The translations under genes and the position numbers were made by a program. A DNA stretch of 12,597 bases from a virus (lineage: Duplodnaviria; Heunggongvirae; Uroviricota; Caudoviricetes): IMG/VR virus record IMGVR_UViG_2663763227_000011. One strand, written 5' to 3'. The notes beneath the pieces are model-generated. The model saw nothing but the letters and a program-made list of their open reading frames with translations. It was not told where the DNA came from and did not search any database. The stretch's first letter is position 1; the number at the start of each line of letters is the position of its first letter. Below, piece by piece: positions 1-12,597 of this stretch.

Positions 1-1461
1 ATGAAAAAATTACTGCGTCTTTTTTTCCCGCTCTCGCTGCGGGTACGTTTTCTGTTAGCAACGGCAGCAGTAGTATTGGTGCTTTCGCTTGCCTACGGAA
101 TGGTTGCGCTGATCGGTTATAGCGTCAGTTTCGATAAAACCACGTTTCGGCTGTTACGTGGCGAGAGCAATCTGTTCTATACCCTTGCGAAGTGGGAAAA
201 CAATAAGTTGCATGTCGAGTTACCCGAAAATATCGACAAGCAAAGCCCCACCATGACGCTAATTTATGATGAGAACGGGCAGCTTTTATGGGCGCAACGT
301 GACGTGCCCTGGCTGATGAAGATGATCCAGCCTGACTGGCTGAAATCGAATGGTTTTCATGAAATTGAAGCGGATGTTAACGATACCAGCCTCTTGCTGA
401 GTGGAGATCATTCGATACAGCAACAGTTGCAGGAAGTGCGGGAAGATGATGACGACGCGGAGATGACCCACTCGGTAGCGGTAAACGTCTACCCGGCAAC
501 ATCGCGGATGCCAAAGTTAACCATTGTGGTGGTGGATACCATTCCGGTGGAGCTAAAAAGTTCCTATATGGTCTGGAGCTGGTTTATCTATGTGCTCTCA
601 GCCAATCTGCTGTTAGTGATCCCGCTGCTGTGGGTCGCCGCCTGGTGGAGTTTACGCCCCATCGAAGCCCTGGCAAAAGAAGTCCGCGAACTGGAAGAAC
701 ATAACCGCGAATTGCTCAATCCAGCCACAACGCGAGAACTGACCAGTCTGGTACGAAACCTGAACCGATTGTTAAAAAGTGAACGCGAACGTTACGACAA
801 ATATCGTACAACGCTCACCGACCTGACCCATAGTCTGAAAACGCCACTGGCGGTGCTGCAAAGTACGCTGCGTTCTCTGCGTAGTGAGAAGATGAGCGTC
901 AGTGATGCTGAGCCGGTAATGCTGGAGCAAATCAGCCGCATTTCACAGCAAATTGGCTACTACCTGCATCGTGCCAGTATGCGCGGCGGGACATTGCTTA
1001 GCCGCGAGCTGCATCCGGTCGCCCCACTGTTGGACAATCTCACCTCGGCGCTGAACAAAGTGTATCAACGCAAAGGGGTCAATATCTCTCTCGATATTTC
1101 GCCAGAGATCAGCTTTGTTGGTGAGCAGAACGATTTTGTCGAGGTGATGGGCAATGTGCTGGATAATGCCTGTAAATATTGCCTCGAGTTTGTCGAAATT
1201 TCTGCAAGGCAAACCGACGAGCATCTCTATATTGTGGTCGAGGATGATGGCCCCGGTATTCCATTAAGCAAGCGAGAGGTCATTTTCGACCGTGGTCAAC
1301 GGGTTGATACTTTACGCCCTGGGCAAGGTGTAGGGCTGGCGGTAGCCCGCGAAATCACCGAGCAATATGAGGGTAAAATCGTCGCCGGAGAGAGCATGCT
1401 GGGCGGTGCGCGGATGGAGGTGATTTTTGGTCGCCAGCATTCTGCGCCGAAAGATGAATAA
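1..1461 (+). CDS. phoQ: Sensor histidine kinase PhoQ (PhoP/PhoQ two-component system), full length 486 aa
   Basis: Translation matches remembered E. coli PhoQ essentially end to end: N-terminal TM helix, acidic periplasmic patch EDDDDAEM, second TM, HAMP, His-phosphotransfer box ([11 protein letters not shown]) and ATPase G-boxes (DDGPGI, GQGVGL). ATG start at 1, TAA stop at 1459-1461. Confidence 0.97.
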
Positions 1462-1937
1462 ATATGTCCTTTTATCACTACATCAAGGCAAGCCATTGAT
1501 TTAATTAAATGATTTGCACTGCAAAAAGTGCTAAAAATCGCAAATTGACTACACCATTAACTACACCGATCGTTGCACTGTATGAAACAACGTGGAACAA
1601 ATAGACACAAGAAATATACAGGCGGGTCATCTTTCCAGGGGGAAGCGCGCTAATTCATGAGGGGCGTTAATGTTGATATGGGGATCCCCATAACGGGGCT
1701 ACCGGATTTTTTTTCCGGTTAACTGTTAATCAGGCTGGTGGGCTTTACCTGTTTTGTAGGAGTGGTCATTATGACCATTCAGACAATGACCTTAATCAGA
1801 ACTTTTCGCTAAAAAATGACGTTGGCCACGTCGTCCGGAAAGCACAAAATCCCGTCAATTTTTAATTAACGGTTAAACCGTCTTTTGTCACGGCGTGTCA
1901 CTGGTTGTAACTCTCCGTCACGGTATGTCGCTACTCG

Positions 1938-2219
1938 TTAACGCCGTAACCGCTCCGGCTTCTTCCAGTGGTACGTAATTTTCTCCGTTTCCCGATACAG
2001 TGCCACGCGGCGATTGTAGGCCAGCATTTCAAGAACGCGGATCCGTATGTTGCGCATATCCACATCATTAAGCTGGATACCATCACGGCGCATCACCTCA
2101 GCAACCACACGCGCGTAATTTTCGGCGGTCACGCTGTCCGGCTGCGTGGCCTGTTCGTCATGCTGCTGGCTGATTCCGGTAACGCGGCGGATTAATCCCA
2201 GTAGTTCGGCTTCTGTCAT
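1938..2219 (-). CDS. Hypothetical protein, 93 aa, last island gene before the phoQ-proximal end
   Basis: The ORF track gives 1938..2417 with a GTG start that reads through the cos site. The internal ATG at 2219..2217 (MTEAELLGLIRR...) has a GGGGG Shine-Dalgarno 5-6 nt upstream and avoids translating cos DNA. Protein-like composition; no family recognised. Confidence 0.45.
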   Translation of the reverse strand: MTEAELLGLIRRVTGISQQHDEQATQPDSVTAENYARVVAEVMRRDGIQLNDVDMRNIRIRVLEMLAYNRRVALYRETEKITYHWKKPERLRR

Positions 2220-2252
2220 TGTGCCCCCATCGCTCTGATAGTCTGGTGTCGT

Positions 2253-2431
2253 CGGGTCCTTCCTGGAATTATGGCCCGTTACGGGGCGGCGACCTCGCGC
2301 GTTTTCACTATTTATGAAAATTTTTCGGGATCCATGTCCGGTTTCTCTGCAAGTTAACCATATGAAAAATATAAAAACATGCTTTCCATGAACCGGACAT
2401 GCGCAAAAAACAGACACTAAAACCGGACATC
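2253..2431 (+). other. Lambda-type cos site, copy A: cosQ-like flank, cosN, lambda-like I2 stretch, then three island-specific AACCGGACAT repeats (candidate cosB R sites)
   Basis: 2278-2329 reads cgttACGGGGCGGCGACCTCGCGcGTTTTCaCTATTTATGAAAATTTTtCGG, near-identical to the lambda cos region as I recall it, with the 12-nt cohesive-end sequence GGGCGGCGACCT at 2284-2295. Downstream repeats: ATGTCCGGTT (inverted, 2334-2343), AACCGGACATG (2391-2401), AACCGGACATC (2421-2431). Confidence 0.65.
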
Positions 2432-2498
2432 GAACCAGTTAACCGAAAGTGTGCACAAATCACATGCATTGCTGCGAGTGATTAACAAGTTATCGGCT

Positions 2499-2933
2499 TT
2501 ACTGTTCTGTATCGGCTGATTGCTCCATGCTGGCACGGCGAACGCTTACGGCATGACGCCACCCAGCCAGAAAGCCAGCCATTTTATTTCGTGCCTTGCT
2601 CACATCTTCCGGTGAATAGCCGTAAATCTGCAAACCTTCATCAAATCGATGTTCTGTTTCTTCACTGGAGTACTCGTCACGCTCAGATGAAAGCAGCCTG
2701 GCAAACATAATTTTTTCCAGCGCACTGGTTTCTACGTGATATCTGATGGCCTCAAGACGGCTTTTACCTGAAGACCAAAGCAATGTATGCCCGATGTGAT
2801 AACCGCCAGACTTTCCGCGATCCGCATTAAGATACGGCATCCCCTGTTTGGTCCATGCGCGAATAGTGGTTCTGTTAACCTTGAAATGTTCAGCTATTTC
2901 CTGCTGACTTACAAAACAAGCTTTATCAATCAT
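2499..2933 (-). CDS. Terminase small subunit Nu1-like DNA-binding protein, 144 aa (Rpp-like redirecting-packaging protein candidate)
   Basis: N-terminus SQQEIAEHFKVNRTTIRAWTKQGMPYL aligns with the lambda gpNu1 winged-HTH N-terminus (KKQLADIFGASIRTIQNWQEQGMPVL, from memory). It is much shorter than Nu1 (181 aa) and no large terminase gene is adjacent. ATG at 2933, AAGGT Shine-Dalgarno 6 nt upstream, TAA stop at 2499-2501. Confidence 0.75.
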   Translation of the reverse strand: MIDKACFVSQQEIAEHFKVNRTTIRAWTKQGMPYLNADRGKSGGYHIGHTLLWSSGKSRLEAIRYHVETSALEKIMFARLLSSERDEYSSEETEHRFDEGLQIYGYSPEDVSKARNKMAGFLAGWRHAVSVRRASMEQSADTEQ

Positions 2934-3002
2934 AATGTTACCTTAACTGCATGGTTAAATATTAATCAAGTGGTGGTGGTGTCACCTTCACGGAAAAACG
3001 TC

Positions 3003-3066
3003 ATAAATAGCGAAAACCCGCGAGGTCGCCGCCCCGTAACGGGTCCATATGCCGGAAAGGACCCGT
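3003..3066 (-). other. Second cosQ/cosN copy (copy B), inverted relative to copy A, lacking the AACCGGACAT repeats
   Basis: Reverse complement of 3003-3066 is ~90% identical to 2253-2318, including GGGCGGCGACCT (3023-3034 on the - strand) and CGCGGGTTTTCGCTATTTATGA. The sequence then diverges into the leader of the Nu1-like gene (CGTTTTTCCGT...). Confidence 0.55.
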
Positions 3067-3089
3067 AAAAAAAGCCGGATTTCTCCGGC
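3067..3089 (-). terminator. Rho-independent terminator closing the capsid operon
   Basis: On the - strand: hairpin GCCGGA-GAAA-TCCGGC (3074-3089) followed by a 7-U run (3067-3073), 7 nt after the TGA stop of the 137-aa gene. Confidence 0.65.
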
Positions 3090-3095
3090 CTTATG

Positions 3096-3509
3096 TCAGA
3101 TGGTTTTCAGTATGCGATCGACGTCGCCTTCATCGCCCTGGTTTCTGCCGTCGTATGCCATGCCGGGTGATACGGCTTTCGGGCTGTGCATGTCCATAAA
3201 GTTTTCAAAGGCTGCGGTAAGCTCCGGCGCAACCTTTGGGCGCTCCTGCTCTATGGTCATGTTCAGGATTTCACGAGCATTATCGACGCTAATACATGGC
3301 ACGTTTGCCATTGCACGTAACAGCGGCTGATAGTCGTTATGTTCATGAAGCGCCATAATCGCATCAGCGCGCGGCTTGTCCTGCTCTTCCAGTTTGTTGA
3401 GTTGATATACGGCCTCGTAGGTTGATAAACCTCTGTCAGCCATTGCCCGCGCTTCGGCTTTAAATTTACTCGCCAGCGGTAGCGTCATGACGCTTTCATT
3501 CGTTGCCAT
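3096..3509 (-). CDS. Hypothetical protein, 137 aa, last gene of the capsid operon
   Basis: ATG at 3509 with AGGGGGA Shine-Dalgarno 4 nt upstream, immediately after the decoration-gene stop (translationally coupled). No recognisable family. Confidence 0.55.
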   Translation of the reverse strand: MATNESVMTLPLASKFKAEARAMADRGLSTYEAVYQLNKLEEQDKPRADAIMALHEHNDYQPLLRAMANVPCISVDNAREILNMTIEQERPKVAPELTAAFENFMDMHSPKAVSPGMAYDGRNQGDEGDVDRILKTI

Positions 3510-3521
3510 CGTTCCCCCTGC

Positions 3522-3857
3522 TTATCGGGCCAGCGGCTGAACGGATACGCCAGAACCCGCAAAGGCGGCGCATTTTTTCGCATCGGTGTCGACGCTCTCA
3601 GGCCAGTTAACGGCGGCAATATTGAAAATCCCCGTCTTGTAACACTGTGCTGATTTCTGCTTTGACGTGTCCACAGGGTACGAGGTCAGATAAACAGCCT
3701 TGCCAGATTCCTGACCATCCCACGGCTTAAACTCGCCATTGTCTGCCAGCATCAGCGGGGTAAATTCCTGAATAACGCCAGCATCAGCGGCAAAATGTAC
3801 CAGCGTCGTGGCGACCTGCTGACTGCCTGCAAATAACTCAATGTATGGAGTGTCCAT
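3522..3857 (-). CDS. Head decoration protein, lambda gpD-like, 111 aa
   Basis: TPLMLADNGEFKPWDG and YKTGIFNIAAVNWPESVDTDAKKCAAFAGS parallel remembered lambda gpD segments ([47 protein letters not shown]). GGGGGGA Shine-Dalgarno upstream of ATG 3857. Confidence 0.8.
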   Translation of the reverse strand: MDTPYIELFAGSQQVATTLVHFAADAGVIQEFTPLMLADNGEFKPWDGQESGKAVYLTSYPVDTSKQKSAQCYKTGIFNIAAVNWPESVDTDAKKCAAFAGSGVSVQPLAR

Positions 3858-3869
3858 AGAATCCCCCCG

Positions 3870-4925
3870 TTAACCAATTTTGACGGTAACAAATTTGCGA
3901 ATATCTGCCGGTACCGGCTGCGGTGCACTGTGTGTCTGCACGTACTCAATCGCCGGATCGCCGTCCTCAATCCAGTTTTTCGGGTAAAACATGTTTTGTG
4001 TTGCGCCCGTTCTTACCGCTTCCTGATCCATTATCGCACCATAGGCCACCAGCCCTTTATTGTTGGTGTTACCTAGGACCAGCAAATCAGGCTCAAGGAA
4101 ATATTTTTCGGTACCATCGCTGTCAGTGTATTTGCCGGAATAGACGATAAGGGCCAGATCACCAAGATAGCCTTTAAAGCTCACCACTTCGCCCAGGTTT
4201 TTACAGGCCAGTTCGGCGGCGGATTCTGAACCACGGGAAAGATCGTACAGCTCACGGAATTTTTTAAAGCTGCGTAACGTTCGCCATACCTCAGCGCCCA
4301 TAATCATGACGTTTGCGGGGCAACCAGCCTGATCGGCGTATAGTTCGATATCATAGATTGGATCGTGGGTTTCTTTGTCCTGCTCTGACCATTTTTTCCC
4401 GTCGGCCTGCTCTATGATGTTTTTTTCCGGTATCTTCCAGTCGATTTCATAGCGCTCTATGCCTTCGCCCTCAATGATGTTTTTTCCGGTCGTTACCGCA
4501 TTTACCGCCAGCCATTCCACGCGCGCTTTTATGGCGTTTATCTGGCGGCGCATATTGCCAGTAATCAGGCGCATACGGCGATAGGTAGGGTCGTTAAGCT
4601 GTGCCGGATCTTCTCCAGCCATGCGCATGATGGTTTTCGTTGGATCGATTTCGTGCTTTGGCTTCATGTAGCCAGGTTTAATCGTGCTGGTTTCGTACCC
4701 TTTATCGCGCTGAACCTGGCTACCCACCATAGGCGAACAAAACGCCGACATGGTGACTTCTTCAATGTCCAGGGTATCCAGCATGATGTTTTGCGTGCTG
4801 AATGTCGCCACGTTCGGGAAAAACAGCGTAGTAAACAGAGGGCTGAATTTAAAATCCGCAATATCCCCGCGATTCAGGTACATGAAAAGCTGGTTAGTGT
4901 TAAGTGCCGTTGCTTTGCCTGCCAT
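3870..4925 (-). CDS. Major capsid protein, lambda gpE family, 351 aa
   Basis: Several blocks match remembered lambda gpE: KFSPLFTTLFF, PGYMKPKHEIDP, DPTYRRMRLITGNMRR, FKGYLGDLALIVYSGKY...LVLGNTNNKGLVAYGAIMD, YPKNWIEDGDPAIEY. The ATG overlaps the stop of the upstream 68-aa ORF (TAATG). Confidence 0.85.
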   Translation of the reverse strand: MAGKATALNTNQLFMYLNRGDIADFKFSPLFTTLFFPNVATFSTQNIMLDTLDIEEVTMSAFCSPMVGSQVQRDKGYETSTIKPGYMKPKHEIDPTKTIMRMAGEDPAQLNDPTYRRMRLITGNMRRQINAIKARVEWLAVNAVTTGKNIIEGEGIERYEIDWKIPEKNIIEQADGKKWSEQDKETHDPIYDIELYADQAGCPANVMIMGAEVWRTLRSFKKFRELYDLSRGSESAAELACKNLGEVVSFKGYLGDLALIVYSGKYTDSDGTEKYFLEPDLLVLGNTNNKGLVAYGAIMDQEAVRTGATQNMFYPKNWIEDGDPAIEYVQTHSAPQPVPADIRKFVTVKIG

Positions 4926-5131
4926 TATTCACCCCCATAATTTTTATGCATCCCAAGCGCCGCAAGTAAATAAGAGCGTACAAGTGAACCTATCGACGGC
5001 TCCGGCGTCATCAGCGGATCCAGTCCAGCCGCCACGCCAGCCTCATAGTTTTTTTTGTGGCGCTGCTTGAGCACCTCCACGATTTCGGGGCTTATGTACA
5101 CCGAAACACCGCCTTTTTTCTCTTCAGCCAT
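4925..5131 (-). CDS. Hypothetical small protein, 68 aa, first gene of the capsid operon; N-terminus resembles a ribbon-helix-helix fold
   Basis: ATG at 5131 with GAGGAA Shine-Dalgarno. N-terminus KGGVSVYISPEIVEVLKQ has the beta-strand then helix pattern of RHH regulators (tentative). Stop overlaps the capsid start. Confidence 0.5.
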   Translation of the reverse strand: MAEEKKGGVSVYISPEIVEVLKQRHKKNYEAGVAAGLDPLMTPEPSIGSLVRSYLLAALGMHKNYGGE

Positions 5132-5166
5132 AGTAAGAAATTCCTCTTCGACTTAAAAAATCATAA

Positions 5167-5215
5167 CTGGATGTTCATCCAGCTCTGATTATAATCAGGA
5201 TTGCGTTTTGTGCAA
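5167..5215 (-). promoter_or_regulatory. Near-consensus sigma70 promoter for the capsid operon with two adjacent CTG...CAG palindromes
   Basis: On the - strand: -35 TTGCAC (5215-5210), 16-nt spacer, -10 TATAAT (5193-5188). The -10 lies inside the perfect 14-bp palindrome CTGATTATAATCAG (5185-5198); the perfect 16-bp palindrome CTGGATGttCATCCAG (5167-5182) covers roughly +1 to +16. Confidence 0.5.
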
Positions 5216-5296
5216 TGATATTGAGTTGTGTTGCAAATTATGAAATGATGATCCCGCTCATGTGTGTCAGTGCACCAAAAAGCCTCATATGCAAAA

Positions 5297-5333
5297 GCCC
5301 GATAAGCCACCTCTGACCTTATCGGGCTTTTTT
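5297..5333. terminator. Strong hairpin terminator between the replication and capsid operons, probably bidirectional
   Basis: Perfect 10-bp stem GCCCGATAAG / CTTATCGGGC with an 11-nt loop, followed by T6 on the + strand and preceded by A4 (U4 on the - strand). Confidence 0.5.
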
Positions 5334-5507
5334 ATCTGCCTGCAAAGATGTCGAACGAAAATTAACCACAACCATCATCTTTTTTGCATCAAAACAATTA
5401 AAAACAATAAATTACGCTCATGATGATGATGACGATAAAATCACAAAAATGCGCTTTTTTCCGCGCTTCCCGCCCCGTGTTCAGGCCCACCCCGCCAGGA
5501 GGACCCG

Positions 5508-5530
5508 TAAAAAAGCCGGATTGCTCCGGC
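5508..5530 (-). terminator. Rho-independent terminator after SSB
   Basis: On the - strand: hairpin GCCGGA-GCAA-TCCGGC (5515-5530) followed by a U-rich run (5508-5514), 17 nt after the SSB stop. Almost identical in sequence to the terminator at 3067-3089. Confidence 0.65.
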
Positions 5531-5546
5531 TTCTGTCTCTCGTCGC

Positions 5547-5969
5547 TTAAAACGGTATGTTATCCCCGTACGGATCATCATTCCCCGCCTGTTGTTTTGC
5601 CCTGTTCAGCGCGTCAGTAGCCTGGCCCTGTTGACCTTTTTTGCCGCCCAGTCGCGCCGTTCGCGCACTGATTACACTGTCTGCGATAACCTGCCAGCCC
5701 TGCCGCGTTTCTCCGTTCTGCCCAGTCCACTGGCTGATCTGCATGTTACCCGCCACGCTCAGGAGTTCACCCTTGCGGTGCCTTTCCAGTGCTTCGGCCT
5801 GTCTGCCAAATGCCAGGACGGATAACCACATCGTCGCCGTTCCGTCATCTGCCTGGCTGCACGGAAGGGGGACCGCCATACGCGCCAGCGTCATCGGTGT
5901 GCCCTTGCTGGTCTGTTTTACCTGCGGGTCGTCCACCAGCCGCCCGTAAGCTGCTATCTGTGCTGTCAT
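5547..5969 (-). CDS. ssb: Single-stranded DNA-binding protein (SSB), 140 aa
   Basis: OB-fold SSB pattern (GRLVDDP...WLSVLAFGRQAE...KGELLSVAG...WTGQNGETRQ) followed by a Gly/Gln-rich linker and a C-terminal acidic ...DDPYGDNIPF tail resembling the E. coli SSB DDDIPF tip. GGAGAGG Shine-Dalgarno; ATG overlaps the upstream TGA (ATGA). Confidence 0.85.
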   Translation of the reverse strand: MTAQIAAYGRLVDDPQVKQTSKGTPMTLARMAVPLPCSQADDGTATMWLSVLAFGRQAEALERHRKGELLSVAGNMQISQWTGQNGETRQGWQVIADSVISARTARLGGKKGQQGQATDALNRAKQQAGNDDPYGDNIPF

Positions 5970-6244
5970 GATTCCACCTCTCCGGTTTTAACGTTGATGG
6001 TTGTTACCTGTTCCGCTTCGGCAATCTCCCGCTCTGTCAGCGTGGCAAAATTTGCCGCCGTCGTGGTCATGAATGCGCTTATCAGTTCGGGATGTGCTTT
6101 CGCGTATCCTTCCCCCGCGTGGCGGTCTATCGTTCTGATTGCCACCTTTAAAGCGTGCTCTGTCATGTCTAACGCGCGATATTTCGGTTCTGTTCTGTCT
6201 CTGCGTTTTTTGAGTGATTTATTAAATTTCCCTGAAGTGTGCAT
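5966..6244 (-). CDS. Hypothetical protein, 92 aa, between the origin and ssb
   Basis: ATG at 6244 with GAGGGGG about 11 nt upstream; translationally coupled to ssb. No family recognised. Confidence 0.5.
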   Translation of the reverse strand: MHTSGKFNKSLKKRRDRTEPKYRALDMTEHALKVAIRTIDRHAGEGYAKAHPELISAFMTTTAANFATLTEREIAEAEQVTTINVKTGEVES

Positions 6245-6292
6245 ATTTATTTTTACCCCCTCGTTTAAAAAGTTTTGAGTTGTGCCTCCCCT

Positions 6293-6519
6293 TGTCTACC
6301 TTATCTACCTTAGTGGCCCTCATGCCAGTAATGGCGCGGCTTTCAGCGGGGTAGAGTGCTTTTATCCACTATCTACCCCGTGTCTACCTCCCTGTCTGAT
6401 TCAGGTAAAATCAGGTAGAGAGGGTAGATAGTGGGTAGACAGTAAAAAAAGGCTATCTACCTAACTTAATGCACTGAATTAAATGTATTTTTCTTTACTC
6501 AGGTAGACAGGGTAGACAG
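6293..6519. repeat. Iteron-type replication origin: about 11 copies of GGTAGA(C/G)AG / CTnTCTACC in both orientations flanking an AT-rich segment
   Basis: TCTACC at 6295, 6304, 6372, 6383, 6456; GGTAGA at 6350, 6414, 6423, 6434, 6502, 6511; AT-rich stretch 6462-6500. Lies directly 3' of the primase/helicase gene, as in PICI and plasmid origins. Confidence 0.7.
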
Positions 6520-6532
6520 CAATTACAAAAAA

Positions 6533-8287
6533 TTATAAAAACGCGTCGCACTCGTCTGTTGTTATTGCGTTAGTCTGCGTTACCCCCTTAACTTTCCGCG
6601 TAATATATTCATGTCCGTAAACTTTTGCGGCAGGCTTCATAGCCTTTCCAAAGTCATTTACGTTTAGCGGTTTGCTCCTGCCTGCGTATGCCATAAACGC
6701 CAGATAGACGCGGTAAAGGCTGTTCCTGGTCGTGTACTTCACTGAATCGCCACCGCCCCCCATCATCAGGCCGCGCGCTTCCTCCAGAAAATTCAGGAAC
6801 TGGCAAAACTCAATAACCGGATCCGTCTGTTGCTTTATTGCCAGTGCTTCATCACCGTCACGCTGTTCCAGTAGTAAAGCCCGTGCCTTCTCAGGGTCGG
6901 TAAAGTTCGCCAGCAATCGGCGGATAATGACAGGGATTTCAGCCGCGATCTTTTCCGGTAGCTCCCTGTCTTTTTCGGCCTCACTGACGATATTGTCGAA
7001 ACGGAAAATCACGCGACGACGTGCCACACCTCCGGCCCGTTCGGTGAATATCATCGGGTTATTGTTGGTCGCCAGCACCACCGCCCTGATTACAGCCGTG
7101 AAACGCTTTTCGTATTTCGGGTTAATTTCCACGGGGTCACCGCCCGTGATTTTCTTGATGCCCGTTCCTTCGCCTGTATATTTCGGCTGGTCAGCCAGGA
7201 CGATAAGACGACTCCCGACAACCTGCGCACGTCCACCAGCATCATCAAGCGATGTCATTTCAGCGCTTACCGTGTTCTGTTTCCCTGCCAGAAGGCTGGC
7301 TATGTGCGTGAATGTACTTTTACCGCTCCCGCCGTCTCCGGTGGCCTCAATAAACATCTGCCAGTCGTACCGGTTCGCCATAATCATGTACAGCGCGGCA
7401 CATATACGCATCATCTTGCGCGGGTCTTTTCCGGCTGCGTGCTCAAGCCATTTATGAAAGTTTGGCGCGTTATCGCGGATGTTCTCCCCTGGTGCTGGTG
7501 GCGTGTACTCAATGCCGTTGTGCGTGGTGATCCAGTTCTCCGGCGTGTGCGGGGAAAATCCCCCCGTTTTCAGGTCAAGCGCACCATTGGCGAACGGCAG
7601 CAAATCGCCGGACGGCTCGCCCATTGGTTCGGCAATAACTTTTAACGCTTCCACGGCGTTATTGATTACGCGCTTGCTGAAAGTGGCCCTGTGCTCTGAA
7701 TAGATCGCCACCATTTCGCGGCTAAGTTCCATTGTGCTGACCGGACACCATACCCCGCCGCGCCATACGTGAACGATTTCACTTTCAGGATGTACGCAAA
7801 CGCCATCAAAGCGATCGGCAAGCAGCTGCGCGCGCTCACTGTCCGCCATCTGCGAAAGTTGCGCCTTTTGCTTTACCGGAAGCTCAATGACCAGACCATC
7901 AGAAAGATTCTGGCGCTCACGGGCCAGATATTCGCGCCAGTTCTCCACCTTCTGACCGTGCATACCATCAGGGTAAAAATTTGCATCCTGTACGCCTGCC
8001 GCCGCCAGCTTCTGGCCAATCGCCTTTATCATTACTGGCGCAAGATATCCGGCCCTGAATATGCGCACGGATTTTCTGCCTTCCGGCACAATTTGCAGCT
8101 TATCCAGTTCTGATAACTGCTGCTCCCCAAGCCACACAGGAGGCTCATTATCTCCGGCCATACGCGCATCATGTTCCTGCCATTGTTTCGCGTGTGCCCA
8201 GGCATCACTACCCGCAAAAATAATGACTTCTGTTCCTTTGTGTTTTATGCCGCGTGACTGCTGTTTTACGTTCGGTGCCAGTTTCAT
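6533..8287 (-). CDS. Primase / replication initiator with SF3-type P-loop NTPase domain (P4-family primase-helicase; Pri-Rep-like), 584 aa
   Basis: Walker A motif GDGGSGKST and Walker B-like RLIVLAD in the C-terminal half, a long N-terminal primase-like region, adjacent iteron origin. ATG overlaps the upstream stop (ATGA). Confidence 0.9.
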   Translation of the reverse strand: MKLAPNVKQQSRGIKHKGTEVIIFAGSDAWAHAKQWQEHDARMAGDNEPPVWLGEQQLSELDKLQIVPEGRKSVRIFRAGYLAPVMIKAIGQKLAAAGVQDANFYPDGMHGQKVENWREYLARERQNLSDGLVIELPVKQKAQLSQMADSERAQLLADRFDGVCVHPESEIVHVWRGGVWCPVSTMELSREMVAIYSEHRATFSKRVINNAVEALKVIAEPMGEPSGDLLPFANGALDLKTGGFSPHTPENWITTHNGIEYTPPAPGENIRDNAPNFHKWLEHAAGKDPRKMMRICAALYMIMANRYDWQMFIEATGDGGSGKSTFTHIASLLAGKQNTVSAEMTSLDDAGGRAQVVGSRLIVLADQPKYTGEGTGIKKITGGDPVEINPKYEKRFTAVIRAVVLATNNNPMIFTERAGGVARRRVIFRFDNIVSEAEKDRELPEKIAAEIPVIIRRLLANFTDPEKARALLLEQRDGDEALAIKQQTDPVIEFCQFLNFLEEARGLMMGGGGDSVKYTTRNSLYRVYLAFMAYAGRSKPLNVNDFGKAMKPAAKVYGHEYITRKVKGVTQTNAITTDECDAFL

Positions 8288-8583
8288 TTTTTACCCCTGA
8301 ATCCGTTAATCATGGTTTTCAGCTTCTGGATGTTTGCCCGTGCCCTGGCGTTGCTGGTGGGCACGTTATGCGGCGCGGTCTGTACCAGAGAAAAATCACG
8401 CCGGAACTGATAAACAGGCATCACGCAATCATATTCGTAACCTTCACGGCGGTAGGTTACACGCCGTTCTTCCACGCCCTTAATCATTACCGTGCCGCCG
8501 TACTGGTCGCGGTAAATATCACCGCGCGTAAATTTAGGGTGAGTGTTGCCACTGGCAGTTAAGCCAGAATATTTAAGTTTCAT
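8284..8583 (-). CDS. Hypothetical protein, 99 aa, immediately upstream of and coupled to the primase
   Basis: ATG at 8583; stop overlaps the primase start. Protein-like composition; no family recognised. Confidence 0.55.
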   Translation of the reverse strand: MKLKYSGLTASGNTHPKFTRGDIYRDQYGGTVMIKGVEERRVTYRREGYEYDCVMPVYQFRRDFSLVQTAPHNVPTSNARARANIQKLKTMINGFRGKK

Positions 8584-8588
8584 TATTT

Positions 8589-8822
8589 TTATTCTCCGGT
8601 GTGCTGTTCTTTATATCTGTCGTGCAATAGATCTATTTCTTGCAGTTCCATTATTACAGGCTCAAGAAGCGTTATTAATGCCGTGGCAATTCTTGATTTT
8701 TGTTTGTCGCGTTCATTATCGCCAAGTGTTTCAAGCCATATGCGCAATATTTCCAGCATGTTTTCACTGTGAGAAAGTGCAAGAAATGCGCGGTCTATTG
8801 TTTCGTGGTAAATATCACGCAT
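8589..8822 (-). CDS. Hypothetical protein, 77 aa
   Basis: ATG at 8822, placed 1 nt after the upstream TAA (TAATATG); TAA stop at 8589-8591. Confidence 0.5.
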   Translation of the reverse strand: MRDIYHETIDRAFLALSHSENMLEILRIWLETLGDNERDKQKSRIATALITLLEPVIMELQEIDLLHDRYKEQHTGE

Positions 8823-8823
8823 A

Positions 8824-9258
8824 TTAATCCCCGTCCGTCGTTTTTCTTAAAATAACCTCTGTCACGAAATCAGCATAATCGGCGGCGATATTCAGTACAT
8901 CAAGCCCCGTTGATTTATATTCTCTCGTGGAAAGTAAGAAAAAAGCCGCTCTAATAAGTTCTGGCATTGACGAAAGCGCATCAGCCGCATCATCAGGAAC
9001 GCCGGAAAATTCCTGTTTCAGGGAATTAAAACGATCATCACGCATAACCCCCCCATTTTCACAATCGGCAACAAGAATATTTTTAGCGTCATTCAGTGAC
9101 CGCGTTGCGATGTATCGGATACATTCCAGGGCGAACGTTGTCCGGTCTTTCTGTTCTTCTCCCTGTGCAAGCTCTGCCGTGCATTCAATATCAATAAGCG
9201 CGTGCATCAGCGTAGTGAGCGCGGCGGCGGCTGCGTCCGGTGTGGTTTTATTGCACAT
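8824..9258 (-). CDS. Hypothetical acidic protein, 144 aa
   Basis: Preferred start is ATG 9258, which has a GGAGGGG Shine-Dalgarno 5 nt upstream and overlaps the end of the 76-aa ORF by 11 nt. The longer 9312 start in the ORF track would overlap that ORF by 65 nt. Confidence 0.5.
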   Translation of the reverse strand: MCNKTTPDAAAAALTTLMHALIDIECTAELAQGEEQKDRTTFALECIRYIATRSLNDAKNILVADCENGGVMRDDRFNSLKQEFSGVPDDAADALSSMPELIRAAFFLLSTREYKSTGLDVLNIAADYADFVTEVILRKTTDGD

Positions 9259-9478
9259 GTACCCCTCCGCATTTTTTTTCGTTAGAAATAAGCGTTCTTC
9301 TTTCCTGTTCATCGCTCAGGAATACGCAGACCTCACCGCTAAGGCGTTTAAGTAAGCCGATGATTGCCCCTGATTCGCTGTCGGTCATCATGCTAGGGTA
9401 ATCCTCTGCCAGTGCGCAAATAACTTCGATTTGGTGGGCGCGTTCTGCTGCCTGTTGTAGTGTGATTTCCTGGCTCAT
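9248..9478 (-). CDS. Hypothetical protein, 76 aa
   Basis: ATG at 9478 overlaps the TGA of the upstream 66-aa ORF (ATGA); its 3' end contains the Shine-Dalgarno and start of the next gene. Confidence 0.5.
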   Translation of the reverse strand: MSQEITLQQAAERAHQIEVICALAEDYPSMMTDSESGAIIGLLKRLSGEVCVFLSDEQERRTLISNEKKCGGVHVQ

Positions 9479-9675
9479 AAGCCTACCCCCTGACGAATAC
9501 GGGCAGCAAATACCATCACGCAGCCAGCCGGAGATTGCTGGCGTGCTTCCTGTTCGCTGGTGGCCTCAATGGTAATCACGCGCGGTTGTGCCGTGCTCAG
9601 GGCGATAAAACGCCAGATGTATTTATTCAGGTTGTGCGAGTCCCGCCCTTTCGGGTGTGTGGTATGATTTCTCAT
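9475..9675 (-). CDS. Hypothetical small protein, 66 aa, first gene of the replication operon; tentatively Icd-like
   Basis: ATG at 9675 with GAGGT Shine-Dalgarno 4 nt upstream. This is the in-frame tail of the 428-aa ORF in the track, here treated as an independent gene. The YIWRFIAL motif reminds me of proteins annotated as host cell division inhibitor Icd-like in P4-like prophages (memory only). Confidence 0.5.
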   Translation of the reverse strand: MRNHTTHPKGRDSHNLNKYIWRFIALSTAQPRVITIEATSEQEARQQSPAGCVMVFAARIRQGVGL

Positions 9676-9771
9676 AGCTACCTCGATACTGTTGCTATCG
9701 TTGGTGGTTAGAAGCCCCGTTACTGCTCCTACAGTGCGGGGTTTCGTCGTTTCTGTGCCTTTCATCAATAA

Positions 9772-9854
9772 GGTGTAAGACACAATGTAAAACAATGGTG
9801 TCTTACACGTCAACCCTTCAAAATATTTTTTTTTCGTGTATATTGTCTTACACC
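9772..9854. promoter_or_regulatory. Divergent back-to-back promoters with three copies of an 11-bp operator half-site GTGTAAGACAC
   Basis: Perfect inverted repeat GTGTAAGACAC (9773-9783) / GTGTCTTACAC (9798-9808) with a 14-bp spacer, plus a third half-site TGTCTTACACC (9844-9854). Leftward promoter: -35 TTGACG (rc of 9809-9814) and -10 TACATT, with the inverted repeat spanning its core. Rightward promoter: -35 TTCAAA (9817-9822), 16-nt spacer, -10 TATATT (9839-9844), overlapped by the third half-site. Confidence 0.55.
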
Positions 9855-9874
9855 AAAAACATGAGGGGTTAAAC

Positions 9875-10054
9875 ATGGCAACGGGTCCAAAGAATGCAAA
9901 ATCACAATCTGTAACTGCACGTATTGCCCATGAAATTATTGAAGGCATGGAGAACGTGAAAGAAGAAGGCGAAAGCACGGGACAGTTTATAAACGCAGCC
10001 ATGCGCGGCGAAATCAAACGCCGCCAGCGCCGCAAGGCCAAAGAGCAGGAGTAA
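9875..10054 (+). CDS. Small ribbon-helix-helix-like DNA-binding protein, 59 aa (candidate repressor of the divergent promoters)
   Basis: ATG 9875 with GAGGGG Shine-Dalgarno 6 nt upstream. SVTARIAHEIIEGMENVKEEGESTGQFINAAMRGEIKRRQ fits an RHH beta-strand plus two helices; good E. coli codon usage. Opposite in orientation to every other island gene. The ORF track's 9836 GTG start is rejected. Confidence 0.6.
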   Translation: MATGPKNAKSQSVTARIAHEIIEGMENVKEEGESTGQFINAAMRGEIKRRQRRKAKEQE

Positions 10055-10111
10055 CCATCACCAGCGCCGTGGTGTGAGTAACTACGGCGCATTGCTATGC
10101 AGGACAACACA

Positions 10112-10285
10112 ATGACCGATAAAGAATTGACCAAAACATTATCACCGGCACGGAAAAGACGGCGCAGAAAGATAGAGCATGAATCAGAAAGATTCGCGCC
10201 ATGTGCTTTTGCCCTTGAGCAATTCCTTAAAGAGTACAGGGAAAAGCGCTCATTGCAGGTATGGCAACGAACTGAACCAGACTGA
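10112..10285 (+). CDS. Small, highly basic protein, 57 aa, co-transcribed with the RHH gene
   Basis: ATG 10112 with AGGA 7 nt upstream (the ORF track starts at 10097). Contains RKRRRRK; rare codons suggest horizontal origin; followed by + strand terminators. No family recognised. Confidence 0.45.
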   Translation: MTDKELTKTLSPARKRRRRKIEHESERFAPCAFALEQFLKEYREKRSLQVWQRTEPD

Positions 10286-10364
10286 TTGCATTGCCCACCA
10301 GCCGCAAATGTGGCATTGTTGGCAATGCTCATGCGTTGGGGATAACGTGTAGCTTGTGTCGAGG

Positions 10365-10393
10365 GGCCACCGTAGCGGGTGGCCTTTGTTTTG
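10365..10393 (+). terminator. Rho-independent terminator of the + strand cassette
   Basis: GGCCACC-gtagcg-GGTGGCC hairpin followed by TTTGTTTTG. A second + strand hairpin with a GCAA loop and T-run at 10488-10520 may act as a backup. Confidence 0.55.
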
Positions 10394-10761
10394 CCCGTTA
10401 TTCGGCAATTGTGGCGCTTCTCCACATGGTTGATATAATCCCACTGCTCAGATTCATTTTTTGCGCAGTAGGTTAATTGTTCACAAAGGCGCTCCGGCAA
10501 CGGGGCGCTTTTTGTTTTTATTAGTTTGTAGAAACCTGACTCAGAGATAATGCTCATATTCTGATTGCCGTCAGGGGTGTAAGTTAAATTTACTCCCTTT
10601 TTATCATCAAACATCTGCAACGCTCTGGCGTTAACAATATTGGTTTCACTCCCGCCAGTAAGGCCGGAAATAACCGGAATAATTTCGGCAAAATTTTGCA
10701 GATTCTGTTTTTCAGGACGAACGAAGCCCCGCCCTTGTTCGGGAGAATATCCAGTATTCAT
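10380..10761 (-). pseudogene. KilA-N/Bro-N-like (antirepressor-like) N-terminal coding region with no in-frame stop; probably a truncated or disrupted gene
   Basis: The first ~125 aa are protein-like and contain TYTPDGNQNMSIISESGFYKLI, resembling the Bro-N/KilA-N core (P22 Ant-like SVINESGLYSLI, from memory). Beyond about 10380 the same frame continues for ~230 codons of Cys/Ser/Arg/Trp-rich junk, antisense to the + strand genes, until it joins the 66-aa ORF. The lower coordinate is approximate. Confidence 0.4.
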
Positions 10762-10813
10762 GGTTAGATCTCTGTATTAGTGGATGGGTGGCGGCTGTGT
10801 GCCGCCAGCCTGA

Positions 10814-11002
10814 TTAGTGAACTGCCTCGCAGCTGTCCTTCCATGCCAGAACTTCGGATAAAGACCAGCCAACGGAACGACCGCCCAGCTTACGCCGTGA
10901 TGGGAATTGTCCGGCTTTTTCCAGGCGGTACCGACATGAGCGGCTCAGGCCTGTAAGTTGCTGACATTCTTTTTCACGTATAAAGCGATCTGTGCTTAAC
11001 AC
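10814..11002 (-). CDS. alpA: AlpA-family phage regulatory protein (Xis-like winged-helix activator), 62 aa
   Basis: LTGLSRSCRYRLEKAGQFPSRRKLGGRSVGWSLSEVLAW matches the AlpA/Vis family signature (TG-SR-T-Y...FP...LG-RSVGW...EV--W). GTG start at 11002 with GGGGGA Shine-Dalgarno; TAA stop at 10814-10816. Confidence 0.85.
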   Translation of the reverse strand: MLSTDRFIREKECQQLTGLSRSCRYRLEKAGQFPSRRKLGGRSVGWSLSEVLAWKDSCEAVH

Positions 11003-11280
11003 AATTCCCCCTTTGTTGTTTCTTAAAGAGTCATTGGGTGGATTATTGGGTTGGGTTGTGTCGGATTGTGTCAGGGTGTTTGTGGAATGGCAAACACTGG
11101 CTGCGGTCGTTTTACAGAAGCAGGGGGAATGAGAATAAAAACTCTTTTAATTCATTATGATGCAAAGGCATAAAATTTTACTTTTACGCCTTTTTTACAT
11201 ATTTTTAAGAGTGATTCGCCAGTGTATAAAAAAACAGTACACCTATAAAAATCAAATGGTTATTACGATGGCTGATTTTT

Positions 11281-11340
11281 AACCCGTTGTTCCATTTTGT
11301 TCCTTGTTGTTCGTCGTTGTGTCTCGTTGTTTCACGTTGT
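11281..11340. repeat. Six tandem 10-bp-phased repeats (consensus about TCnTCGTTGT) just downstream of the integrase stop
   Basis: aacccgttgt / tccattttgt / tccttgttgt / tcgtcgttgt / gtctcgttgt / ttcacgttgt: each 10-mer ends in TTGT, giving exact helical phasing. A second GT-rich repeat cluster (GATTGTGTC, GGGTTGTGTC) lies at 11038-11090 in the alpA leader. Confidence 0.6.
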
Positions 11341-11367
11341 CCGCATCCTGAAAAATCGCAAAAAAAA

Positions 11368-12597
11368 TTATATTTCTCTGGCTATTGGCAATGTGGTTAC
11401 GTTTTCATGTGTTCCCGCCAGTATCCCTAACCGCTCCGTCCACATATCCAGCGCGTCACGTTTCGCATCCAGATAACGGGAATGGTTATAGACTCGTTGC
11501 ATCCCTGGCATCTGATGACCTGTAAGCTGCTCCACGACGTGAGGATCCACGCCTAAATCGTTCAGCATCGTTGTAAAGGTGCGCCGGATGTCATGCAGTG
11601 ACCAGTGAGGGTGTTTTAGCCTCCTGTGCGCTAATCTGCCGTACTGCGACACGCTTGTTTCCTGTTTCACTTCCCCCAGCAATAAGCCCGTGTGCCTGTT
11701 CTGCTCCACCAGCTGCGTGACGAACGGCAGTATTGCTTCCGGTATGGGCCGGAATATTGCCACCTTCGTTTTGCTGTGTTCTTTCGGCACGGTCCAGAGC
11801 ATTTCGGTAAAATCCCACTCGCTGATCTCCGATAACCTCAGTTCTACCGTCCGGCATCCGAAAACAATCAGGAGGCGGATTAGTGCGACGTAGTAAGGGG
11901 AAAATATTTTTTTGTCCAGTGCCTGCAATAATTCGCCAAGTTCTTTGGTGCTTAAGACACGCTCGCTTATATCCGGTTTTTTCCCAACGTCCGCCACACT
12001 CATATCATCAAGAACGTTGCTGATTGCATAGCGCCGCCTCCGGCAGAACTTAAGCGCCTGTTTGCACGTCTGTAGCAAGAATCCGGCAGTAACAGGCGTT
12101 CGCTTTGCCACCTGGTCAAAACAGGCCAGCCAGTGCCGTAGCTCGCATTTATCCAGCGGCATAGCACCAATGTGCTGTATTACGTGATTATTAAGGCGCT
12201 TTTTCAGGGCGGCATAATCCACGCGGTTTTCCTTTACGTAAGACTCAAGCCAGTAGGTAAGCGCATCGCCAACCGTTACGGGCTTTAACGCTTTCTGTAC
12301 GGTGTAATTCATCTCATGACGTGGATTTTTCCCCTCAGCAAGCCAAGCGCGACACTGTGCCGCTTTTTCCCTGGCAGCTTTCAGACTCAGATCAGGATAA
12401 TTTCCCAGCTTAATCCGTTCCGGTCGTGCTCCCCTTCCCGTTCCGGCCCTGTAGGTGAAATACCAGGTTAAAAGGCCGCTGGTTGAATGCCTGACGCTCA
12501 GGTTTCCACCGTCATTAAGAAAGGCTGTTTTTTGGGCGGGTGTGCCGTTGATTTTCCTTAGCTGTGTATCACTCAGTTTGTTAAGTGCTCTGCGCAT
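11368..12597 (-). CDS. int: Tyrosine-type site-specific integrase, P4/CP4-57 family, 409 aa
   Basis: N-terminus LSDTQLRKINGTP...GGNLSVRHSTSGLLTWYFTYR matches the P4-type integrase arm-binding domain. The C-terminal catalytic region has RTVELRLSEISEWDF, HDIRRTF and the HxxxRxxY-type tail (GHQMPGMQRVYNHSRY). The start codon sits exactly at the window edge, so the true start and the adjacent att site cannot be verified. Confidence 0.9.
   Translation of the reverse strand: MRRALNKLSDTQLRKINGTPAQKTAFLNDGGNLSVRHSTSGLLTWYFTYRAGTGRGARPERIKLGNYPDLSLKAAREKAAQCRAWLAEGKNPRHEMNYTVQKALKPVTVGDALTYWLESYVKENRVDYAALKKRLNNHVIQHIGAMPLDKCELRHWLACFDQVAKRTPVTAGFLLQTCKQALKFCRRRRYAISNVLDDMSVADVGKKPDISERVLSTKELGELLQALDKKIFSPYYVALIRLLIVFGCRTVELRLSEISEWDFTEMLWTVPKEHSKTKVAIFRPIPEAILPFVTQLVEQNRHTGLLLGEVKQETSVSQYGRLAHRRLKHPHWSLHDIRRTFTTMLNDLGVDPHVVEQLTGHQMPGMQRVYNHSRYLDAKRDALDMWTERLGILAGTHENVTTLPIAREI

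Follow-up and report, generated by a model that had tools for sequence, protein, structure and literature searches.

The window analysed here is a 12,597-nucleotide stretch of viral DNA (IMG/VR record IMGVR_UViG_2663763227_000011; Caudoviricetes) in which an intact phoQ gene (positions 1–1461; PhoQ_Sensor, E = 2.7e-87; protein 99.8% identical to PhoQ of Escherichia coli CFT073) is directly followed by an island. Pfam and PHROG scans of the window open reading frames (ORFs) assigned to this island a P4-type tyrosine integrase, the activator AlpA, a primase/helicase (Pri-Rep) with an iteron origin, a single-stranded DNA-binding protein (SSB), capsid genes and a Nu1-like gene accompanied by cohesive-end (cos) sites (Table 1). 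A first-pass annotation of the window had listed these genes at the same places and had proposed a satellite resembling phage-inducible chromosomal islands (PICIs) directly downstream of phoQ, and both points are borne out. Megablast matched the window to strain CFT073 at 96% nucleotide identity, at the same locus directly after phoQ, and to strain HM670 at 97.2%, also directly after phoQ; together these two genomes match at 96.0–97.2% across 96–99% of the window. Among 5426 complete E. coli genomes, 41 carry at least 80% of the window at one place. The CFT073 element is EcCICFT073, the experimentally characterised prototype of the Gram-negative PICIs (PMC6092414, PMC6739421). We are close to certain that the island at 1460–12597 is a mosaic allele of EcCICFT073 inserted in the phoQ–roxA spacer. 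As an allele of a well-characterised satellite at a known site, the element is not new: EcCICFT073-type PICIs, their site and their mechanism have been worked out previously.

The attachment (att) core of the island is a 10-bp direct repeat, recognised by comparing K-12, the window and the integrase-side flank of relatives. The att repeats that the first-pass annotation had suggested looking for are AAATATGTCC at 1460–1469 and a second copy found 11.2–11.5 kb away, just before roxA, in CFT073, HM670 and the related loci L006 and L007. The K-12 attB, AAATATGCCC, differs from AAATATGTCC in one base, and homology to empty-site genomes stops at window position 1469. ARAGORN identified no tRNA or tmRNA gene in the window, in agreement with the earlier description of a site that is not a tRNA gene; the core sits at the phoQ stop codon. 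The boundaries originally given as 1462–12597 were accurate on the left only. Because the integrase-side core of near-identical relatives lies ~172 bp past the integrase ATG, outside the window, the right coordinate is the window edge and the island runs on beyond it. From the att cores of relatives we estimate a unit of ~11.3 kb, of which the window holds ~11.1 kb. A ~31-nt block of the ACTACACC repeats found near the phoQ-side core recurs ~25 bp past the integrase ATG in L006, CFT073 and HM670, again outside the window. These repeats fit arm-type sites for an integrase with an Arm-DNA-bind_3 domain and are candidates for this role.

The empty arrangement in K-12 consists of phoQ, 75 bp and then roxA, as expected from the earlier remark that the next chromosomal gene follows phoQ closely. 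An empty-site probe matched in 4822 of the 5426 complete genomes, whereas a 200-bp probe spanning the phoQ–island junction was fully matched in 600 of them. Given these numbers of empty and occupied sites, the segment is accessory, as first proposed, and the site is often used; the alternative of a conserved core flank was not borne out. phoQ and roxA flank the island in both CFT073 and HM670, and pepT and potA lie farther out on the roxA side.

Table 1. Features of the phoQ-linked island, in window coordinates.
Feature	Position	Strand	Evidence and remarks
attR core AAATATGTCC	1460–1469		Overlaps last two bases of phoQ TAA; phoQ-side island boundary
Tandem ACTACACC repeats (ACTACACCATTAACTACACCGATCGTTGCAC)	1548–1578	+	Candidate arm-type integrase sites
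Variable non-coding segment	1749–1936		Downstream of orf93; minus-strand terminator-like hairpins at 1872–1852 and 1832–1818
orf93, conserved hypothetical, last island gene	1938–2219	-	phrog_1561, E = 5.9e-56
Second cos site	2253–2430	+	cosN GGGCGGCGACCT at 2284–2295; lambda-like left end; candidate cosB repeats
rppA, redirecting phage packaging protein, 144 aa	2499–2933	-	Nu1-like; N-terminal helix-turn-helix
cos site upstream of rppA	2990–3066	-	cosQ-like ACGGGTCCTTTCCGG at 3066–3052; cosN at 3034–3023; divergent cosB
Intrinsic terminator ending capsid operon (GGCCGGAGAAATCCGGCTTTTTTT)	3067–3090	-	Read from sequence; repeat family D2
orf137, all-helical, last capsid-operon gene	3096–3509	-	phrog_1999, E = 1.4e-61
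Head decoration homologue, lambda gpD-like (c1500 in CFT073)	3522–3857	-	PF02924 (HDPD), E = 1.3e-17
Major capsid homologue, lambda gpE-like (c1499 in CFT073)	3870–4925	-	PF03864 (Phage_cap_E), E = 5.9e-52
orf68, small conserved protein, first capsid-operon gene	4925–5131	-	phrog_3255; annotated in CFT073 and HM670
Intrinsic terminator after ssb	5509–5530	-	GCCGGAG..CCGGCTTTTTT hairpin; repeat family D2
ssb, single-stranded DNA-binding protein	5547–5969	-	PF00436, E = 4.9e-15; phrog_44, E = 3.3e-37
orf92, conserved hypothetical	5966–6244	-	phrog_1231; stop overlaps ssb start
Replication origin	6245–6532		9 exact GGTAGAYA iterons, both orientations, at 6293–6518
Pri-Rep, P4-alpha-like primase/helicase	6533–8287	-	D5_N, DUF5906, Pox_D5; phrog_864, E = 3.4e-175
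DUF4222 protein	8284–8583	-	PF13973, E = 1.6e-24
orf77, small conserved hypothetical	8589–8822	-	Block phrogs: phrog_2196, phrog_2512, phrog_1478
orf162	8824–9312	-	Annotated as 144 aa in HM670; same phrog block
orf76	9248–9478	-	Same small-gene block, 8589–9478
“Bro zone”, 428-codon stop-free frame	9475–10761	-	Truncated BRO-N/Ant-like first ~120 codons; Icd-like end
Plus-strand unit	9875–10512	+	Antisense to middle of 428-codon frame; annotated in CFT073 and HM670
YlcI/YnfO-family gene	9875–10054	+	NF041551, E = 5.2e-18
57-aa ORF	10112–10285	+	Follows YlcI/YnfO-family gene
Two terminator hairpins	10359–10390, 10485–10512	+	End of plus-strand unit
alpA, island activator	10814–11002	-	PF05930, E = 3e-18
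P4-type tyrosine integrase	11368–12597	-	PF13356 (Arm-DNA-bind_3) and PF00589 (Phage_integrase); window ends at ATG

The integration, regulation and replication modules are near-identical to those of the prototype. The integrase is 99.8% identical to its CFT073 counterpart; the index of the assembly collection lists a protein identical to that of the window in 901 blocks, and this protein lies beside roxA in all eight places inspected. AlpA is 98.4% identical to CFT073 AlpA, and the alpA–int intergenic region, which contains the sequence upstream of alpA with its promoter, is 99.5% identical. Pri-Rep shares 99.0% of its residues with the CFT073 protein, and the region directly 3′ of its gene carries the iterons of the origin (chance expectation in the whole window 0.25; 9 copies reached in 0 of 200 shuffles). 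This origin region is 95.1% identical to that of EcCICFT073, whose rep and ori drive autonomous replication (PMC6092414).

The product of the 144-aa gene is 100% identical to CFT073 c1503, is homologous to the RppC structure (PDB 6HLK, E = 5.3e-31) and shows 30% identity to the N-terminus of lambda Nu1. Residues R21-T22, which were mutated in the RppA study (PMC6739421), can be read straight from its sequence. What the first-pass annotation called a Nu1-like redirecting gene with cos is exactly RppA, and the cos assignment stood as well: two exact lambda cosN 12-mers in inverted orientation flank the gene, and a 65-bp inverted repeat joins the two cos sites. At both of them, ~34–43 nt past cosN resemble the lambda left end before the sequences diverge, and a different cosB would fall in this divergent stretch. 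After cosN, the site upstream of rppA matches the lambda left end exactly over 34 nt; its region is 97.5% identical to that of CFT073, and the second cos region is 99.6% identical. Three CCGGACAT repeats, at 2334, 2393 and 2423, are candidate cosB elements. No copy of this motif occurs elsewhere in the window; the three, one of them inverted, are grouped within 100 bp on the side of the second cos where cosB lies, and we consider them candidate recognition elements for terminase or Rpp. EcCICFT073 carries two functional cos sites, of which cos1 is required for efficient transfer (PMC6092414).

The mechanism has been demonstrated for the 96%-identical EcCICFT073 and is applied here on the basis of the near-identity of genes and cis-acting sites. 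EcCICFT073 is not SOS-inducible alone; a helper, which can be CFT073 prophage 4, lambda or phi80, switches on its alpA (PMC6092414). AlpA activates its own promoter, and its over-expression alone leads to excision and to runaway replication that requires int and pri (PMC6092414). Deletion of int or alpA abolishes transfer of EcCICFT073, whereas deletion of pri-rep greatly reduces it; the helper small terminase (TerS) is essential and the packaged DNA is phage-sized (PMC6092414). RppA (c1503) heterodimerises with helper TerS, prevents the phage cos from being recognised and steers the complex to the island cosB (PMC6739421).

From its identity with EcCICFT073, we infer that the window island has the same helper-dependent induction, replication, packaging and interference. 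Induction of a lambdoid cos helper (lambda, phi80 or CFT073 prophage 4) would end the silent state of the island, a helper factor switching on alpA. AlpA would activate its own promoter and the rightward operon, Int would excise the island, and Pri-Rep would fire the GGTAGAYA iteron origin to generate concatemers. RppA would bind the helper small terminase (Nu1/TerS), and the resulting heterocomplex would recognise the island cosB and no longer that of the phage, so that phage packaging would be blocked and the helper terminase directed to the island cos. Full-size helper capsids would then take up island DNA in multimers of phage length; judging from the unit length, four 11.3-kb copies (~45 kb) would fit a lambda head. 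The capsid, decoration and orf137 genes form a separate operon.

The window copy differs from EcCICFT073 at several places. The window lacks the PerC-family gene located between ssb and orf68 in CFT073, the SSB/orf92 pair has 72% amino-acid identity, one ORF of 162 aa (or 144 aa) stands where CFT073 has two of ~73 aa, the segment 9718–10012 is diverged, and the non-coding tail is not alike. This 188-bp tail (1749–1936) is unalignable with CFT073 or HM670 and is common to an island inserted at tqsA in strain CFSAN067215 (L003). Judged from its alignments, the window is a recombinant: 1494–9045, which takes in the late zone and the replication zone, shares 99.2% identity with the tqsA-inserted island, whereas 9230–12597 is 99.9% identical to L006, which occupies the phoQ site. 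Within the 5132–5546 segment that replaces the PerC-family gene, positions 5344–5513 are 90% identical to DNA of Stx2-converting phages; the matching phage stretch is unannotated and lies between the endopeptidase and small-terminase genes.

The CFSAN067215 island spans 3001–14203 of L003. It has an integrase of 91.6% identity, uses a different core repeat, TGCTGTTAT, and carries slightly altered arm repeats (GTGACTACACC, two copies). The window island and L003 form a natural pair for studying how core specificity switches between closely related integrases. An identical integrase and att site carry very different cargo elsewhere (L008, L009, L010 and L012). In L008 and L010, the D5-type primase and RppA are replaced by an AAA_25 replicase and a 180-aa Phage_Nu1 protein. 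The D5-type primase is retained in L009, where it accompanies the 180-aa Phage_Nu1 protein and a capsid allele of 56% identity. L012 is a true capsid-forming PICI (cf-PICI) with an HK97-type Phage_capsid, Peptidase_S78, Phage_portal, Phage_HCP and Phage_connect_1. Modular exchange of cargo among such islands has already been described in the literature.

Three points can be set against identifying the window island as an allele of EcCICFT073. The integrase-side att site and roxA lie beyond the window, so the completeness of this copy is deduced from its relatives. The absence of the PerC-family gene and the differences in SSB/orf92, 9718–10012 and 1749–1936 make the mobility of this exact mosaic a prediction. 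Lastly, the main text of PMC6092414 and PMC6739421 does not state which physical site is cos1. Nothing in the window contradicts the identification.

The same differences bear on whether the island could be a decayed, immobile remnant of a PICI, with satellite-like content that is no longer inducible or packageable. This is improbable. The mosaic allele without its PerC-family gene, the divergence of 9718–10012 in the regulatory “Bro zone” and an attL beyond the window would agree with decay, but int, alpA and pri-rep, which are essential in EcCICFT073, and rppA are full length with products 98.4–100% identical, and the cos, ori and alpA-promoter regions are 95–99.6% identical to CFT073. In addition, the ratio of non-synonymous to synonymous substitution rates (dN/dS) is well under 1 for the int, pri, capsid and decoration genes, and relatives with an identical Int have both att cores.

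Far less probable still, to the point of being negligible, is that the window captures one end of a full-size lambdoid prophage running past its edge, as its lambda-type cos, its E-like and D-like head genes and its termination inside the element might suggest. The roxA gene follows ~250 bp after the integrase in CFT073, HM670 and all eight inspected contigs with an identical integrase, and in NCTC86 roxA, pepT and potA come directly after it; pepT and potA also follow in CFT073 and HM670. Because roxA directly follows the integrase in the relatives examined, the island is not the end of a prophage, and the first-pass annotation, which had named this alternative as one that would overturn it, is upheld on this point. 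phoQ was seen at the other island end in six of the eight contigs, and the elements at the att site were PICIs or cf-PICIs in all eight, none being a prophage. No Pfam or PHROG hit to tail, lysis, portal, connector or large-terminase families was obtained for any window ORF of at least 50 aa. A temperate lambdoid prophage comprises complete modules over 40–60 kb, whereas the unit in relatives measures 11.2–11.5 kb, with phoQ on one side and roxA on the other. No phage record covered as much as 80% of the island; among the matches listed, the best cover 2% each.

A cf-PICI that assembles small capsids of its own and takes over tails alone can be set aside with the same assurance: the island does encode capsid and decoration proteins, besides orf137, which may be scaffold-like and bears a connector name in some records, and the true cf-PICI L012 uses an identical integrase and att site, but the Pfam and PHROG scans of the window revealed no portal, prohead protease, head–tail adaptor or connector, large terminase or HNH protein, and EcCICFT073 packages phage-sized DNA with a capsid gene dispensable for transfer (PMC6092414).

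An EcCICFT073-type PICI is also what the gene content describes when the element is classified by hand from the Pfam and PHROG matches. All five core components of the SatelliteFinder PICI model are present, namely an integrase, an AlpA regulator, a primase-replicase, a capsid-morphogenesis component and a small-terminase-like protein, corresponding to Type A (PMC10085698); the scans of the window found none of the components forbidden in this type (tail, holin, portal and connectors). A tyrosine integrase lies at one end of a 10–20 kb island, AlpA is next to int, and transcription runs away from int throughout save for the plus-strand YlcI unit. The primase-replicase is followed by the iteron origin, an Rpp packaging-redirection component is combined with helper-type cos sites, the capsid-morphogenesis component is represented by Phage_cap_E and HDPD, and the element has its own chromosomal att site at which it is present or absent between strains. 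Searches for other content gave negative results: Rfam at gathering threshold had no match in the whole window, PADLOC profiles gave no defence hit for ten unassigned ORFs, and a literature search combining PICI, phoQ and roxA returned irrelevant papers only.

The capsid genes had been regarded by the first-pass annotation as content beyond the Gram-negative PICI template. This view is not sustained, because “capsid morphogenesis” is one of the five core components of the SatelliteFinder PICI model (PMC10085698) and the genes are present in EcCICFT073 as c1499 and c1500. Elements with all five components (“Type A”) are found to 97% in E. coli (PMC10085698), and a capsid gene occurs in 21 of 29 reference Gram-negative PICIs (PMC10111431). 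The capsid protein of the window is 98.0% identical to that of CFT073 and 44% identical to lambda gpE; since no capsid among 50,697 phage records exceeds 48% identity to it, it belongs to a satellite-specific lineage. The decoration protein is 99.1% identical to its CFT073 counterpart and 36% identical to lambda gpD. Low dN/dS between island alleles (0.10–0.22 for the capsid gene and 0–0.23 for the decoration gene) indicates that both genes are under purifying selection.

The last gene of this operon, orf137, may encode a putative Nu3-like scaffold-domain protein. It matches the C-terminus, the scaffold-side end, of the head-maturation protease family phrog_53 (E = 2.3e-9), and hhalign gave a weak match to lambda Nu3 (39 columns, probability 5%) and nothing to FI. 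BLASTP of orf137 against lambda head proteins was negative, its database homologues are from E. coli only, and the AlphaFold2 model built from an 11-sequence alignment was unusable (pLDDT 49.6, pTM 0.27). The name “head-tail connector” given to orf137 in some NCBI records was backed by no profile tested.

Two terminator hairpins of repeat family D2, at 5509–5530 and 3068–3089 (GCCGGA..TCCGGCTTTTTT), are 95% identical to each other. With one of these twin terminators closing the replication operon and the other the capsid operon, the late zone forms a transcription unit of its own. Deletion of c1499 and c1500 in EcCICFT073 left lambda interference and transfer unchanged (PMC6092414), and the literature searched assigns no function to the capsid and decoration genes of PICIs. 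As the operon is conserved among alleles, with dN/dS of ~0.1–0.2 for the capsid and decoration genes, we suggest tentatively, and with considerable doubt, that the E-like capsid, the D-like decoration protein and orf137 have a selected function missed by the published deletions. If so, the proteins of this operon could co-assemble into helper capsids and alter their stability or host range, or they could poison capsid assembly of non-helper lambdoid phages in a defence role.

The region after alpA corresponds to the “Bro zone” of Gram-negative PICIs, which the literature describes by analogy with P4 eta. Its 428-codon frame is also stop-free in CFT073 and HM670 and is called as a gene of 428–430 aa in the L005, L008, L010 and L011 assemblies, whereas PGAP annotates pieces of it and not the whole. 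Protein-family matches are confined to its ends: the last 66 codons (9475–9675) are Icd-like (NF033153, E = 2.9e-18, aa 381–424), and the N-terminus has weak Ant/BRO matches at aa 49–84. A full-length P4 Eta-like protein running from BRO-N to Icd is putative. A codon-position test does not separate this frame from the antisense YlcI gene, because the two frames share third positions. A permissive scan of 9300–11400 for immunity RNAs of the P4 CI/C4/isrK type gave just two terminator-like hairpins (E > 1).

The first-pass annotation had placed all island genes on one strand. Most do lie on the minus strand, but the YlcI/YnfO-family gene and the 57-aa ORF are on the plus strand (9875–10512), and the arrangement is therefore not strictly on one strand. 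The overlapping stops and starts reported at the same time are real, with examples at 9475/9478, 8284/8287, 5966/5969 and 4925. The small-gene block 8589–9478 varies between island alleles. At the phoQ-proximal end, orf93 is an annotated 93-aa CDS in CFT073 and HM670, with dN/dS of 0.08–0.5 between alleles.

By its identity to EcCICFT073, the window island is expected to be a satellite able to block lambda-like phages and to transfer at high frequency, and an island joined to phoQ in this way is present in ~11% of complete E. coli genomes. For annotation, the 3′ flank of phoQ is to be read in this genome as a mobile satellite, not as a neighbourhood of the PhoPQ regulon. The value of the element as a discovery is small, the site, AlpA regulation, replicon, cos sites and RppA redirection being known for a 96%-identical copy.

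Among known systems, EcCICFT073 (alias “O-island 51”; Fillol-Salom et al. 2018 ISME J, 2019 Mol Cell) is the closest, having the same phoQ–roxA site, att core, gene order, two cos sites and iteron ori. The cf-PICIs (e.g., EcCIEDL933; Alqurainy et al.) have integration and replication modules in common with the window island; however, they encode an HK97-type capsid, a protease, a portal, connectors and terminase, whereas the window island has only the E-like capsid, the D-like decoration protein and RppA. Likeness to P4 extends to a P4-family integrase with an arm-binding domain, an AlpA/Vis-like regulator, an alpha-like primase-helicase, a Bro/Icd-type zone after alpA and helper-dependent cos packaging. 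In contrast to P4, psu, delta, sid and epsilon had no match among the window ORFs in the Pfam and PHROG scans, which include no dedicated P4 profiles, and no CI/C4-type RNA was detected in the island by Rfam or by the permissive scan. Finally, the helper of the window island would be lambdoid whereas that of P4 is P2-like, and packaging would be redirected through RppA where P4 relies on capsid size reduction.

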